Part shown: positions 26,538-33,077 of the stretch, one piece after another | Numbering within the stretch: position 1 is the stretch's first letter | How the letters are laid out: every line of letters begins with the position of its first letter | Assembly: GCA_019057865.1 (NCBI GenBank) | Contig: JAHLWP010000002.1 | Location: forward strand, 33,293-97,292 | Length of the DNA: 64,000 nt | Direction: 5' to 3' | Source: Promethearchaeota archaeon | GTDB lineage: Archaea > Asgardarchaeota > Lokiarchaeia > Sigyniarchaeales > SOKP01 | Notes under the pieces: model-generated | Told to the model about the DNA's origin: nothing | What the model saw: the letters and a program-made list of their open reading frames with translations, nothing else | Database searches by the model: none | Translations under genes and position numbers: made by a program

Positions 26538-26903
26538 ATGGGATTTGATGAAGAATTTGATGAGGATTTAGATGAAGATTTAGAAGAACCTTCTGCAAAG
26601 ACTCCTGCTGAAGATGTTAAATCTAAAACTCCTGTAGCCAAAGCTGTTCCTGCAGGAAAAAAGATTTCAGTGTATTTTATGTCAACTATAGGACCGGGTG
26701 AGAAAAAACAAAAATTACTTGTAAATACAGGAAACAATGTTGGAGATATTAAAGAAACTGTAGCAAACTTATTTGGTTTAGATCCAGCTGATTTTCATTT
26801 ATCTTCAGGTGGAGTTACCATGGATGAGAGTTTAACTTTAAATGATTATAACGTAGCTGATGGAGATGATATACTTTTAATTCCAGCAAGTACTGCTGGT
26901 TAA
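26538..26903 (+). CDS. Ubiquitin-fold modifier 1 (beta-grasp, ends ...LIPASTAG-stop) with acidic/Lys-Pro-Ala-rich N-terminal extension
   Basis: GDIKETVANLFGLDPADFHLSSGGVTMDESLTLNDYNVADGDDILLI aligns with ubiquitin [52 protein letters not shown] SD-like element lies upstream. Confidence 0.8.
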   Translation: MGFDEEFDEDLDEDLEEPSAKTPAEDVKSKTPVAKAVPAGKKISVYFMSTIGPGEKKQKLLVNTGNNVGDIKETVANLFGLDPADFHLSSGGVTMDESLTLNDYNVADGDDILLIPASTAG

Positions 26904-26949
26904 ACATAATGGAAAAAAATAAAGAGTTTTAAAATAAGAACCCCTTTTT

Positions 26950-27744
26950 TTAATTCTTTTCTTTTCTTGAGGGAATAAGAGCAATTTCATCATCATCTTC
27001 AATACTATAATCTTTTATATGTGAGTTTTCATCTAATAATATGCCTCCAGAGGATAAAAGAAAATCTTTGAGATTGTAATCAAATAATATTCCGACTCTT
27101 TCTTTAACTGTACTTATTAATTCGGTTGTATCGATTATAATTATATTTGTTTTTTCACCTGGCTTAACTAATGATCTTAGATAAACCCGGATCTGGTCTT
27201 CTATTTCAATAGGATTCATAGGCGGTGTATATATTATCTCCCCATCAATTCTATCTCTGTTTTTTAACATATTTTTGATTAAAATTTTTCTCTCAGTTGC
27301 ATCAAAATATAACATTTCCCTGATAAACATTATCTTATCCATTTTTGATAATCCTAAAAAGTTTATTTTATCTAATTCTTCCTGACTAAATACTGTAAAA
27401 ATATATTTGTTAATTACCTCTATATTTTCATAGGATTTATCTGATTCAACATATACTTTTATTGAAGGCATGGTATTAATATAATCTGCAATAATATCAG
27501 CAATTTTCTTCTTAATCGCCTTTGGTTTTGCAACATATTTTTTTTCTCTTAATCTTTCATCCTGGGTACCTTTTGACTGTATAACTGTATAGATGGTACT
27601 AGTGGATAGTACTGCAACACTACCAATAGTTAGAAAGAGAAATAAAGGAGTACTTTCTATACGGAATAGGAAAAAAAGAATATAAATCAAAATAAAAAAA
27701 GAATAAAGAGTTATAACAATTAAAACGCTATATTTTTTCCTCAT
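26950..27744 (-). CDS. Membrane-anchored protein (2 N-terminal TM helices) with C-terminal ubiquitin-like domain, no terminal Gly
   Basis: The C-terminus IIIIDTTELISTVKERVGILFDYNLKDFLLSSGGILLDENSHIKDYSIEDDDEIALIPSRKEKN is collinear with the two free UBLs. Confidence 0.6.
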   Translation of the reverse strand: MRKKYSVLIVITLYSFFILIYILFFLFRIESTPLFLFLTIGSVAVLSTSTIYTVIQSKGTQDERLREKKYVAKPKAIKKKIADIIADYINTMPSIKVYVESDKSYENIEVINKYIFTVFSQEELDKINFLGLSKMDKIMFIREMLYFDATERKILIKNMLKNRDRIDGEIIYTPPMNPIEIEDQIRVYLRSLVKPGEKTNIIIIDTTELISTVKERVGILFDYNLKDFLLSSGGILLDENSHIKDYSIEDDDEIALIPSRKEKN

Positions 27745-27841
27745 AATCTTTTAATAAAGTTATTTTCTGAATCTCTAATATATAAGTTAAAATATAAATT
27801 CCATTGGAATAAATTTGAAGTTTTTTTTATATTTATACACC

Positions 27842-28504
27842 TTAAATTGATTTTTTAATCTTAGAATATTTATCTGCGTCTAATTTGAATAAAATTCTAT
27901 TTTTATCTTTTTCAATTTTTATTAACTTCAGATTTTTTAAAACATCTAAATATTTTTTAATAGTTTGGTGATTTTTTTTCAAGTTAATTGCTATTTCTGT
28001 AATTTTTAATGCTTTATTTTCTTTCTTCATAAAATTAATTATTTTTTGAACGATATCTTTGTTTAAATAAAAATAAAGTTCGTCAAGTTCTGGATTTGAA
28101 TCAAATTTGAAGAAAATTCTATGATTATTGATTTTTTTTGAACGAACAAATTGAAATTTTTCTAGACATGATAAATGCCATAAAACTTGATTACTTCCTA
28201 TGTTTAGAGTTTTCATTATTTTATTAATATTTGAAGGATTCCTTTTAATGTAATTAAAGATTTCATTCCTTTTTGGATGATCAATAATATTATTTTTCAT
28301 CAATCTAGTTCCAGGGATAATGATATGCCTTTTAATTAAATCCTTTAAGATTAACTCTATTCTATTCTCATTTATATTAGGATTGTATCTCACCCTATTA
28401 TTTATAAATGATATAACTTCTTTAATTGAGAAGAAAGTTTTTTTTGTTAAATACTCTCTTACTAATTCAAGAACAACAGATTCTGCACTATCCAGAATAC
28501 TCAT
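27842..28504 (-). CDS. Protein made of tandem winged-helix domains (ArsR-like regulator candidate)
   Basis: Repeated wH-like segments, e.g. INKIMKTLNIGSNQVLWHLSCLEKFQFVRS and LKITEIAINLKKNHQTIKKYLDVLKNLKLIKIE. Confidence 0.5.
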   Translation of the reverse strand: MSILDSAESVVLELVREYLTKKTFFSIKEVISFINNRVRYNPNINENRIELILKDLIKRHIIIPGTRLMKNNIIDHPKRNEIFNYIKRNPSNINKIMKTLNIGSNQVLWHLSCLEKFQFVRSKKINNHRIFFKFDSNPELDELYFYLNKDIVQKIINFMKKENKALKITEIAINLKKNHQTIKKYLDVLKNLKLIKIEKDKNRILFKLDADKYSKIKKSI

Positions 28505-31061: not shown

Positions 31062-31068
31062 AATTATA

Positions 31069-31878
31069 ATGAATATTGATAATGATAAGAATAACTCAAT
31101 CAGAGAAGTAATAAAACGAAAAATTAGGGAAAAAATCAAAAACGAATTGCTTGAAGAGATATACACTGAATTAAAATTAGAAGAAGAGTTGATTGGAGAT
31201 AGAGCTTCTGAATTTACCCAAAAAAAGCCTTCAGAAGATACAGAAAAAATTAAAATCATACATGAGAACACTTCAACAGAACCAGAAATAGCATATGTTA
31301 AATATAATGATACTAAAGCCAATATAACTATAACAGTAAAAGCAATCCTTAAGATAGCTAGCCATTCATTAAAATATGCCCACTCTAAAATACCAAGAGA
31401 GAAATGGGTTGAAGTAATTGGACTAATTGCCGGTAAATTAGACAATTCTGAACGCATTCTTCAAATAGAAGACGCTTATCCAATGGGACATGGTACAGCA
31501 GTTTATGCTGAAATTAAAGACTATAGAAATTATGTTAGAGCTTTTAAAGATATTAAGAGGAATAAATTATTCATATGTGGATGGTATCATTCTCATCCAT
31601 CTTATGGGTGTTTTATGTCTAATGAAGATATAGGAACTCAAGCGAGATATCAAAAATTATGGGATAAGGCTATTGCTCTTGTTATAGATCCATATCAAAT
31701 TGATGGTACTTCATTAGGATTTGAGATTTATCGTGCAAGTATCAGAACAAAAAAATGGTTTTCTATACCATATAATATAAAAGGGCATTTAGATGTTCGA
31801 ATGTTGCCTGAAATCTTGGCATTTATGATTCCTATTATTGAGGGGAAACCTGTTTACTTGGAATATGATGAAGATTAA
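31069..31878 (+). CDS. JAMM/MPN+ metalloisopeptidase (Rpn11/CSN5-like deubiquitylase)
   Basis: JAMM motif EVIGLIAG...GWYHSHPSYGCFMSNEDI (E, HxH, S, D). GGTGA lies 8 nt upstream of ATG 31069; the track start 31042 overlaps the E2 gene. Confidence 0.85.
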   Translation: MNIDNDKNNSIREVIKRKIREKIKNELLEEIYTELKLEEELIGDRASEFTQKKPSEDTEKIKIIHENTSTEPEIAYVKYNDTKANITITVKAILKIASHSLKYAHSKIPREKWVEVIGLIAGKLDNSERILQIEDAYPMGHGTAVYAEIKDYRNYVRAFKDIKRNKLFICGWYHSHPSYGCFMSNEDIGTQARYQKLWDKAIALVIDPYQIDGTSLGFEIYRASIRTKKWFSIPYNIKGHLDVRMLPEILAFMIPIIEGKPVYLEYDED

Positions 31879-31907
31879 ATTATTTAATATGTGGTGATTC
31901 ATAAATC

Positions 31908-33077
31908 GTGGTGAAAACTAAAGCTGTCGCTATATCATTAATTATATTTTCAATCATAGGCATAATCCATGGTGCTATTTTAGATTCATTTAATGTATTT
32001 GTAACTTGGTTATTAATTAGTTTATGGATAATATTTAATATTAAGATTTTAGAAAATGTAAAACGTCATCGCGAATTTAATTCACCACACAATACTGCCT
32101 TTTTTGTTATTATCCCTTTATTTATCGGAATTTTTTACTCTATTTGGGGTTATTTTACAGGTATATTGGGTGAAAACCTTCTAGAGGGTTCAGATCTATA
32201 TTTTAGTTGGTGGAGTATCATTTTTGGATTTCCATTTGTAGTATATGGCGCTCATTCTTTATATCGTTGTTTTAAGAAATATAATGTTATTTATTTTGGA
32301 ACGAAATCAATAAAAGCTAGGTTATTTGGATATATTTTAACTTTCATTGTTGTTCTTTTTATATTATTTTATTGGATTATATTTTATACTGTTATTGAAT
32401 TCTATAATTCTCCATTAATCCCGCTTCACTTCTCTGTAGATCTTAACCTTTTACTATTATTCATAATTACAATATTGGTATTAATTGTTTTTGGATTTAT
32501 GAGTTCACAAAGACCATTGCCTGCATTAACTCGTGATTATATAGTACAACGTACTAGGAGAATAAATTCATTAACATCTCCTACCGCATTATCTTCGCCT
32601 AGTAGACAAAGAAATAGGGTAAGTTCACCAACAAGAACAACTCCAACATCAAGAACTGTATCTCGTACAACGCGATCAAGTGCTCAATCATCAAGAACAA
32701 AACCAACTTCACATAGACAATCAACTAGAACAAGATCAACAAAAAGCACTCAAACTAGAAATATAAAACCAACTTCAAAAGGTCGAAATCTGGATAGATT
32801 TAAACCAATAGCATCATTTCTATCAGAAGATGATTTTAAATGTATTTTCTGTTTTAAATTACCAAAACTTCCTGAGGATAGAGGGAGAGGGATAATCTTG
32901 TGCCCACGTTGTAGATATCCAGCACATGCAGATGAATTTAAAGATTGGTTACGAACCTCAAATCTGTGTTCACGATGTAGTACTCCTATTCCATATCGTT
33001 ATCAACGAACTCCTAGAATAATTAGTGTAAAGAATTACTTAATTATCTATAGACACTTTTTAAGGAAGAAGAAATAA
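31908..33077 (+). CDS. Polytopic membrane protein with Ser/Thr/Arg-rich linker and C-terminal RING-like zinc finger (E3 ligase candidate)
   Basis: About 6 TM helices, then a low-complexity segment TSPTALSSPSRQRNRVSSPTRTTPTSRT...STRTRSTKSTQTR. The finger is CIFC-x16-CPRC-x4-H-x13-CSRC with a RING-like DWL signature. Confidence 0.55.
   Translation: MVKTKAVAISLIIFSIIGIIHGAILDSFNVFVTWLLISLWIIFNIKILENVKRHREFNSPHNTAFFVIIPLFIGIFYSIWGYFTGILGENLLEGSDLYFSWWSIIFGFPFVVYGAHSLYRCFKKYNVIYFGTKSIKARLFGYILTFIVVLFILFYWIIFYTVIEFYNSPLIPLHFSVDLNLLLLFIITILVLIVFGFMSSQRPLPALTRDYIVQRTRRINSLTSPTALSSPSRQRNRVSSPTRTTPTSRTVSRTTRSSAQSSRTKPTSHRQSTRTRSTKSTQTRNIKPTSKGRNLDRFKPIASFLSEDDFKCIFCFKLPKLPEDRGRGIILCPRCRYPAHADEFKDWLRTSNLCSRCSTPIPYRYQRTPRIISVKNYLIIYRHFLRKKK

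Follow-up and report, generated by a model that had tools for sequence, protein, structure and literature searches.

A probable ubiquitin-like protein-conjugation locus of Lokiarchaeia with single-glycine modifiers and a candidate membrane-bound RING-like ligase

Gene content and conservation of the locus

The 64,000-nucleotide stretch of Promethearchaeota archaeon DNA analyzed here (the window, taken at its full length) contains an eight-gene Lokiarchaeia cluster that probably serves the conjugation of ubiquitin-like proteins (UBLs). In order, the genes encode a first modifier (UBL1), a membrane-anchored UBL-domain protein (memUBL), a double winged helix-turn-helix (wHTH) protein, a second modifier (UBL2), an E1-like activating enzyme, an E2, a JAMM metalloprotease and a RING-like protein with six predicted transmembrane (TM) helices. 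The initial annotation, made from the letters of the DNA, had presented six of these genes as a complete eukaryote-type ubiquitylation cassette. All six open reading frames were recovered in the translations of the window where they had been placed, each on the plus strand; the two intervening minus-strand genes (26950-27744 and 27842-28504) had not been listed. The word 'complete' can be kept only provisionally: five of the six components pass independent tests, but the sixth, the RING-like protein, is provisional, because its assignment consists of an invariant Cys/His pattern together with weak fold and profile matches. From UBL2 through the RING-like protein the genes are co-directional, as proposed, with spacers of 80 nucleotides (UBL2/E1), 104 (E1/E2), 7 (E2/JAMM) and 29 (JAMM/membrane protein).

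A synteny scan using one genome per species yielded 80 loci. The full eight-gene order (UBL1+, memUBL-, HTH-, UBL2+, E1+, E2+, JAMM+, RING+) is present in 36 of them, all in metagenome-assembled genomes (MAGs) of Promethearchaeota, and five more carry the UBL-E1-E2-JAMM-RING core without the full order. Thirteen are incomplete or cut by a contig end, and the other 26 are solo UBL2 paralogues lying away from the enzyme cluster in the same genomes (L006, L009, L020, L022, L023 and others). The memUBL and double wHTH genes belong to the conserved cluster. Homologues of the cluster proteins are labelled Promethearchaeota, Lokiarchaeota or other Asgard MAGs. One solo UBL copy (L009:10001-10333) is surrounded by genes for a bactofilin, M29 peptidases, MFS transporters and a nuclease/phosphatase-family protein, and a check of these neighbors found no UEV gene and no gene of the ESCRT (endosomal sorting) complexes beside it.

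Conservation is uneven across the cluster. Relative to the window proteins, median identity across syntenic loci is highest for the E2 (89%, 49 loci), UBL2 (87%) and the E1 (85%), intermediate for UBL1 (76%, 45 loci), the wHTH protein (75%, 47 loci) and the JAMM protein (67%), and lowest for memUBL (64%, 46 loci) and the RING-like protein (60%, 42 loci). Among the flanking genes, the medians are 57-58% for a coiled-coil protein and an amidohydrolase and 82% for a third flank, folE2. Because the modifier and the E2 reach 87-89% identity, against 57-58% for two of the three flanks, both are under ubiquitin-like constraint. The wider surroundings encode alanyl-tRNA synthetase (AlaRS), a GNAT protein, a CitMHS transporter, FtsZ, folE2, the amidohydrolase and RibD, and these housekeeping flanks argue for a position in the core chromosome rather than on an island. 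The window is AT-rich (G+C 26-35% in 2-kb windows).

Modifiers and their C-terminal glycine

UBL1 (26538-26903, plus strand, 121 residues) and UBL2 (28781-29113, plus strand, 110 residues), the latter the first gene of the co-directional operon, are 69-74% identical to one another, and both reading frames stop directly after LLIPASTAG. The ubiquitin profile PF00240 matches both, with 26.1 bits for UBL1 and 23.4 bits for UBL2 against a cut-off of 25.4. The initial annotation had described a residue-by-residue alignment of their C-terminal halves with ubiquitin. The alignment with human ubiquitin is indeed in register, and the ubiquitin-like motif then quoted, GLDPADFHLSSGGVTMDESLTLNDYNV, is contained in the UBL1 translation, but the similarity is weak (18% identity, BLASTP E=0.003, hhalign E=3e-5, with human ubiquitin, like the HRD1 and c-Cbl RING sequences used below, entered by hand).

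Structurally, the small proteins are of the β-grasp type that had been proposed for them. AlphaFold2, given an alignment of 20 sequences, models UBL2 with the order beta-beta-alpha-beta-beta. Each 10-residue block within residues 31-100 has a predicted local distance difference test score (pLDDT) of 84-91, whereas the stretch 1-29 is disordered. Searched with Foldseek against the PDB, the model gives 683 matches at E<=1e-3. The Caldiarchaeum ubiquitin 6FNO_D leads the list (E=8e-8), and ubiquitin, ISG15, SUMO and NEDD8 come next. UBL2 has 862 homologues, the best 120 of which are 84-95% identical to it, and the profile of the family reaches eukaryotic polyubiquitin at ~1e-11 (P0373).

Both modifiers begin with a conserved extension of 30-40 residues (~40 in UBL1) that is acidic and carries a KSKTP motif. 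This segment (26538-26660 and 28781-28870, plus strand) is disordered, and its FDEFDEDL acidic patch and KSKTP motif recur across the family defined by the STAG terminus. Conceivable roles are the binding of a partner, phosphorylation at a Ser/Thr-Pro site or the provision of acceptor lysines for chains.

The C-terminus departs from the di-glycine motif, which is absent. LIPASTAG forms the C-terminal end of 111 of the 120 closest UBL2 homologues, and seven of the remaining nine have 2-4 residues beyond the glycine. A profile search of 1.84 billion representatives extended the family to 719 relatives, in which the end takes the form x-S-T-A-G: 133 members stop at the glycine and 30 bear tails of 1-6 residues. 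Even relatives of <=50% identity keep IP-x-S-T-A-G; their labels are Hodarchaeales, Helarchaeota and other Asgard MAGs. In two relatives (P0241 and P0242) two or three full units are strung together head to tail, each following unit beginning right after the glycine of the one before, and every unit consists of an acidic stretch, a KSKTP-type motif, a β-grasp domain and an IPxS(T/Q)AG end. In other relatives the module is fused to an N-terminal part that resembles Roadblock, by eye, or a zinc ribbon; the KSKTP-type motif precedes the UBL domain in these fusions as well (P0246 and P0248 are listed with this observation).

Since relatives show tails or poly-UBL boundaries exactly at this residue, the single glycine appears to mark the site of processing and conjugation. 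The N-terminal extension, in turn, would belong to the mature tag, because each poly-UBL unit includes it. The modifiers end in Ala-Gly and have no Lys or Arg among their last 19 residues. Trypsin would therefore leave a remnant of ~19 residues (DYNVSDGDDILLIPASTAG) that escapes standard K-GG proteomics, so that a di-Gly remnant survey of cultured Lokiarchaeia would miss the conjugates.

Enzymes, membrane proteins and flanking features

The E1-like enzyme (29194-30429, plus strand, 411 residues) matches ThiF (PF00899) at 197.5 bits over residues 25-325 against a profile of only 238 positions. This corresponds to an insertion of ~65 residues, and an additional C-terminal domain of ~80 residues follows. 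The motifs reported for it were all found in the translation: the Rossmann sequence GVGGLGCE, the Arg-finger motif SNLSRQ, the zinc pairs CYEC and CSQC, and a Cys in AACTV after the first zinc pair. In a PDB search the top match is SAE2/UBA2 (129.9 bits), followed by UBA7, UBA1, E. coli MoeB (119), UBA3 (116) and ThiF (98); the eukaryotic SAE2, UBA7 and UBA1 thus score 122-130 bits, only slightly more than MoeB with 119. The UBA3 alignment is colinear across E1 residues 35-334. In the SAE2 alignment the window sequence AACTVVGVP faces PGCTIRNTP, whose Cys in the CT motif we take to be the catalytic Cys173. A canonical-type E1 is favored by the SAE2-aligned Cys, by the ~65-residue insertion and by the 80 additional residues at the C-terminus. 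Published trees place the E1-like proteins of Caldiarchaeum and Asgard archaea near eukaryotic E1s (PMC5654768).

The E2 (30534-31061, plus strand, 175 residues) has the UBC fold proposed for it, with a UQ_con score of 88 bits against a cut-off of 27. It matches 281 PDB chains, with HPN and the Cys aligned, and all 60 matches listed are E2/UBC-fold proteins, almost all of them eukaryotic E2s (best Ubc15, 1.5e-15; UBE2R2 of the CDC34 family). It carries the loop-4 sequence YPKQPP, HPN, the catalytic Cys in NICLALVD and the loop-7 WSP; PxxPP in loop 4 and WSP in loop 7 were emphasized in work on the Caldiarchaeum E2 (PMC5654768). When compared with Ubc15 and UBE2R2, residues ~82-100 contain an insertion of 6-7 residues between HPN and the catalytic Cys (HPNFWPKPNEYKGQRNICL). 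Looked up by exact identity, the E2 product is not on record in public assemblies.

The JAMM/MPN+ metalloprotease (31042-31878, plus strand) is Rpn11-like and scores 55.2 bits with JAB (PF01398). Its motif, HSHPSYGCFMSNED, is read in the translation with E...HxHx7Sx2D intact: a coiled N-terminal extension of ~90 residues is followed by the upstream Glu (EVIGLIAGK) and by H-S-H-x7-S-x2-D. The true start is probably the Met of MNIDND at 31069, and it is with this start that the gap to the E2 gene is 7 nucleotides. The best PDB match is the Caldiarchaeum Rpn11 homologue (6FJU/6FJV, ~4e-17), ahead of Rpn11, CSN5 and AMSH.

The last gene of the cluster (31908-33077, plus strand, 389 residues) encodes a polytopic membrane protein and candidate membrane-bound E3. 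Hydropathy predicts six TM helices within residues 1-205, and the positive-inside rule suggests an N-in/C-in topology. A Ser/Thr/Arg-rich linker (residues 215-295) leads to a C-terminal RING-like zinc finger, whose core (residues 312-357; 32841-32978, plus strand) reads C-x2-C-x16-C-x2-C-x4-H-x2-E-x3-W-x6-C-x2-C. In line with the original description as a polytopic membrane protein with a RING-like finger, the protein has six predicted TM helices and an invariant Cys/His finger, but its matches to RING domains are weak. The linker (32550-32790, plus strand; ~residues 215-295) is of low complexity, rich in Ser, Thr, Arg and Pro, poorly conserved yet always present, and it produced a spurious Pfam match to pneumovirus glycoprotein G. 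The family comprises 382 homologues. Among the 120 listed, every entry either lacks a name or is called 'hypothetical protein', and a Pfam domain occurs in none.

The finger is the conserved part of this protein. In 27 diverse sequences C17, C20, C37, C40, H45, D47, E48, W52, C59 and C62 (domain numbering) are invariant. Members of ~48-50% identity keep the ligands, apart from one truncated protein without the last pair; in these members the second residue following the His may be Asp or His, and the Glu is retained. RING E3 ligases use eight Cys/His ligands in a cross-brace to hold two zinc ions and bind the E2. Seven such ligands are present in the finger in canonical form, together with an invariant Glu or Asp, and its spacing, H-x2-(C/E)-x3-W...C-x2-C, is of the RING-H2/C4HC3 type with ligand 6 replaced by Glu. 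Its AlphaFold2 model has a mean pLDDT of 75. The top 50 Foldseek matches in the PDB are mostly RING/U-box domains at E 0.06-0.5 (Listerin, HRD1, RNF4, RING1B, RNF168, Arkadia, Rad18, Prp19, GATOR2), with Sir2 zinc ribbons interspersed. Aligned with the HRD1 RING by hhalign (E=0.0024, probability 12%), H45 falls on the second His, E48 on Cys6, the Trp on the Trp and the last CxxC on C7/C8; the corresponding alignment with the c-Cbl RING was misaligned and uninformative. A profile of the finger searched against a set of 5.8 billion proteins retrieved only fragmentary members of its own family, none with a different architecture, and a profile of the TM domain had no PDB match at E<=10. 'RING-like' is the best available description of the finger, and because the RING/U-box matches are weak its E3 activity is provisional.

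The second membrane protein, memUBL (26950-27744, minus strand, 264 residues), has two N-terminal TM helices by hydropathy (~residues 4-55), a basic helical linker and a C-terminal UBL domain that ends in LIPSRKEKN and matches PF00240 at 25.1 bits (residues 197-256). The domain is 37% identical to UBL1/2 but would be non-conjugatable, because it has no terminal Gly. Family members elsewhere all end in IP(S/K/L)R plus basic residues and never in STAG, so that this two-TM tethered family forms a separate set among the relatives found with the modifier profile; the proteins looked up are 'hypothetical protein' wherever they are named. Hydropathy and the positive-inside rule place the tethered UBL domain and the finger of the six-TM protein, by prediction, both on the cytoplasmic side.

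Between memUBL and UBL2 lies the gene for the double wHTH DNA-binding protein (27842-28504, minus strand), which is ArsR/SdpR-like (HTH_5 E=3e-7, HrcA_DNA-bdg E=1e-6; NCBIfam SdpR and ArsR subfamily matches below cut-offs). Divergent from UBL2, it is probably the regulator of the operon. A scan for terminator-like elements located a hairpin, with stem GAGGGC/GCCCTT and loop ATTAA followed by T9-A-T7, between the UBL2 stop and the E1 start (29146-29182, plus strand). A hairpin with a T-run is found in 53 of 53 syntenic loci, and a few variants keep the stem (e.g. AAGGGG/CCCCTT). The entire 80-nucleotide spacer appears, by eye, strongly conserved across loci. The hairpin and oligo-T are a candidate terminator or attenuator that would set the modifier-to-enzyme ratio, probably with the modifier in excess. 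A scan for sigma-70 promoters, irrelevant for archaea, found no enrichment, and an Rfam scan of the whole window found no RNA family.

Upstream of the cluster, and all on the minus strand, lie an FtsZ/tubulin-family gene (21198-22361, ~4 kb away), a 436-residue protein whose sole match is a sub-threshold one to IS200-like Y1_Tnp (22928-24238), a nucleotidyltransferase-domain protein after it (24260-25309), and a 338-residue coiled-coil protein rich in Lys, Glu and Arg (25321-26337). The last is divergent from UBL1, has only generic coiled-coil matches in Pfam and is present in 43 syntenic loci with the median identity of 57% given above.

Proposed pathway and competing interpretations

From the domain identities, catalytic motifs, β-grasp fold, gene order and conservation and the processing-site signature of the glycine, we infer with a probability of roughly 80% that the region is a core ubiquitin-like protein-conjugation locus of the Lokiarchaeial (Promethearchaeota) chromosome, acting as follows. 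UBL1 and UBL2 would be made ready to use, because their reading frames stop right after the conjugating Gly of IPASTAG. The E1 would adenylate this Gly, load the modifier onto the Cys of the AACT loop and hand it to the Cys (NICLAL) of the UBC-type E2. The cytoplasmic RING-like finger of the six-TM protein would then bring the charged E2 to the membrane and promote transfer to lysines of membrane or membrane-proximal proteins, substrates that are suggested by the location of both the candidate ligase and its UBL-domain partner in the membrane. The Rpn11-like JAMM would strip the modifier off again and, in relatives with tails or poly-UBL genes, also mature the precursors. The two-TM memUBL is probably a docking adaptor at the membrane, by analogy with HERP/Usa1 next to HRD1, while the divergent wHTH protein probably regulates the operon and the hairpin with its oligo-T probably ensures that more modifier than enzyme is made. 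Chemistry of this E1-E2-RING-JAMM kind has been demonstrated in vitro for Caldiarchaeum (PMC5654768) and Helarchaeia (bioRxiv 10.1101/2023.07.25.550441).

Several observations, at the modifiers, the finger and the E1, weigh against this reading. The modifiers are only ~20% identical to ubiquitin, end in Ala-Gly rather than Gly-Gly and, as read from the alignment, have no Lys at the positions of ubiquitin Lys48 and Lys63. The Foldseek search of the PDB with the finger gave no match at E<=1e-3, the only Pfam RING match of the membrane protein is zf-RING_16 at E=0.13, and the best PDB profile match of the finger is a non-catalytic domain, the C-terminal zinc domain of IFT144/WDR19 (CPGCKFPASASQF...CPMC), at E=0.023. 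Glu takes the place of the sixth ligand, Ser replaces the Pro of C7-P-x-C8, and the basic 'linchpin' after C8 is missing.

These properties of the finger are also what favors the strongest competing interpretation, in which a genuine cascade operates but the six-TM protein does not serve as its E3. The finger would then bind UBLs or play a structural part, for example as a zinc ribbon or a non-catalytic RING of the protocoatomer type, the six-TM protein would be a membrane receptor, anchor or main substrate, and conjugation by the E2 would need no ligase, of which UBC9 is capable and which the auto-ubiquitylation of the Caldiarchaeum E2 exemplifies. The structural RINGs of GATOR2 and the Sir2 zinc ribbons among the fold matches would fit such a module. 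Against it, those matches are mostly catalytic RING/U-box domains, and features linked to E2 binding by RING domains are present and invariant (the C-I-F-C hydrophobics between C1 and C2 and the helix Trp at H+7). In 41 loci, moreover, the E1-E2-JAMM operon ends with the six-TM gene as its final cistron. We regard a non-ligase role as unlikely, though it is an alternative to be taken seriously. Apart from this question, the IFT144/WDR19 and GATOR2 matches give a weak hint of kinship with protocoatomer-type RING-like domains.

Doubts about the E1 lead to a different alternative, a sulfur-carrier or otherwise non-conjugating system like those of SAMP/Urm1/ThiS-MoaD; the E1 would then be a MoeB/ThiF-like adenylyltransferase for cofactor or tRNA thiolation. 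By hidden Markov model (HMM) score the adenylation domain is about equally close to MoeB/ThiF and to eukaryotic E1s, and E. coli MoeB reaches its 119 bits in the PDB search. Similarity alone does not settle the clade, because NCBIfam ranks ThiF (145 bits) and MoeB (143) slightly above Ube1 (115), all below their cut-offs. The C-terminal 86 residues have only chance-level PDB matches (eS17, FGFR), which speak neither for nor against a ubiquitin-fold domain there. The SAMP E1 model NF047750, for its part, scores 105 bits against a cut-off of 450. What speaks against sulfur transfer is the company that the E1 keeps: a canonical UBC E2 with HPN and catalytic Cys is co-transcribed with it, so that the contrast drawn in the initial annotation with E1-only SAMP/Urm1 systems holds, whereas a rhodanese domain and adjacent thiamine or molybdopterin genes are lacking and the neighbors are unrelated housekeeping genes. 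In fold the UBL model resembles ubiquitin, SUMO and ISG15, not MoaD/ThiS, the E1 has the SAE2-aligned Cys and the ~65-residue insertion, and relatives encode poly-UBL precursors. A sulfur carrier is accordingly very improbable.

A mobile anti-virus system of the bacterial Bil (UBL-E2-JAMM-E1) or CBASS Cap2/Cap3 type is scarcely credible: the four-component content equals that of BilABCD and the E1 matches PADLOC E1-E2 models at up to 60 bits, but these matches cover only the adenylation core at half the score of eukaryotic E1s, those of the E2 and JAB are negligible (E=0.006 and 0.003), and the housekeeping setting (AlaRS, FtsZ, folE2, RibD), syntenic flanks and strong purifying selection in dozens of genomes are unlike defense islands.

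Single-glycine UBLs are familiar from eukaryotes in UFM1 (..RVG), Atg8 (..FG) and Atg12. They share with the window modifiers the mature x-Gly end and the short C-terminal precursor tails that are removed. The enzymes, however, are not of the UBA5/UFC1 or Atg7/Atg3 type, and a UFM1/Atg-type system was rejected: the E2 has the canonical HPN, and UBA5 (56 bits) and Atg7 (37) score far below SAE2 (130).

For the conjugation locus preferred here, the closest known counterpart is the Caldiarchaeum subterraneum operon for ubiquitin, E1-like, E2-like, a small RING finger protein and Rpn11/JAMM (PMC5654768; PDB 6FJ7, 6FNO, 6FJU). Both would encode the same five activities in one operon, the ligase of the window being a candidate; the top PDB matches of the UBL model and the JAMM protein are Caldiarchaeum proteins, and the two systems share the E2 PxxPP and WSP loops and an E1 with catalytic Cys and zinc site. 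They differ in the modifier, a Gly-Gly pro-form in Caldiarchaeum but Ala-Gly and encoded mature in the window, and in the ligase, a small soluble RING-H2 (C3H2C3) as against a C4-H-(E)-C2 finger that ends a six-TM protein. The window further adds a second modifier, the membrane-anchored UBL-domain protein, the wHTH gene and the conserved 30-40-residue acidic and KSKTP extension of the modifiers.

Within the Asgard archaea, a Helarchaeial E1/E2/RING-E3 cascade is linked to ESCRT through UEV-Vps23, its modifier being a di-Gly pro-ubiquitin and its RING E3 a soluble protein whose N-loop binds UEV-Vps23, while Loki- and Thorarchaeia are reported to lack UEV-Vps23 (bioRxiv 10.1101/2023.07.25.550441). 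A discrete Lokiarchaeota 'Ub region', separate from the ESCRT genes, is also on record (PMC9192718). The window has the same phylum-level system of ubiquitin-like modifier, E1, E2 and deubiquitinase and likewise lies apart from ESCRT genes, no ESCRT domain being found among the flanking genes scanned (~14-36 kb of the window). Its membrane-integral RING-like protein and STAG modifiers contrast with the soluble RING E3 and di-Gly modifier of Helarchaeia.

The membrane proteins have their nearest parallel in eukaryotes. In endoplasmic-reticulum-associated degradation (ERAD), the polytopic membrane RING E3 HRD1 (SYVN1) partners with the UBL-domain protein HERP/Usa1. HRD1 and the window protein share an architecture of multi-span membrane domain, disordered linker and cytosolic C-terminal RING-type finger, the HRD1 RING is among the fold matches of the finger and aligns in register, and the window gene stands beside one for a membrane protein predicted to present a non-conjugatable UBL domain to the cytosol. 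In contrast, the TM domains have no detectable sequence homology (profile against the PDB; no Pfam domain), the finger has Glu for Cys6, there is no sign of retrotranslocation, and the organism has no endoplasmic reticulum. The resemblance would thus be functional and architectural only.

The cascade itself is no discovery, because the logic of E1, E2, E3 and deubiquitinase is already established for Asgard archaea and Aigarchaeota. The initial annotation cautioned as much, rightly so in view of the reconstituted Caldiarchaeum and Helarchaeia systems (PMC5654768; bioRxiv 10.1101/2023.07.25.550441) and the Lokiarchaeota Ub region (PMC9192718). Its further suggestion, that the membrane-tethered parts and the modifier termini are undescribed, agrees with the searchable literature, in which no description was found of the six-TM RING-like protein and the tethered UBL protein, nor of the Ala-Gly 'STAG' end, the conserved N-terminal extension and the poly-UBL precursors; such absence is not proof. 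The single-glycine tags, the membrane-embedded RING-like candidate ligase and the membrane-anchored UBL protein thus look undescribed.

A bolder proposal, which we advance tentatively and at less than even odds, is that Lokiarchaeia run a membrane-centered UBL pathway built from a Glu-substituted polytopic RING-like ligase, a membrane-anchored UBL adaptor and single-glycine STAG modifiers. The tags of such a pathway would keep their acidic/KSKTP tail, and poly-UBL as well as Roadblock- and Zn-ribbon-UBL fusions would occur elsewhere in Asgard archaea. If true, prokaryotes would have an equivalent of the ubiquitylation by which membrane proteins are fed into ERAD or ESCRT sorting in eukaryotes. 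The pairing of a membrane E3 with a tethered UBL typifies eukaryotic ERAD (HRD1 with HERP/Usa1), and with its six-span candidate ligase and neighboring membrane-tethered UBL domain the Lokiarchaeial version may reveal how ubiquitylation and membranes first came together. It would thereby bear on whether ubiquitin-based quality control and sorting of membrane proteins predates the endomembrane system.

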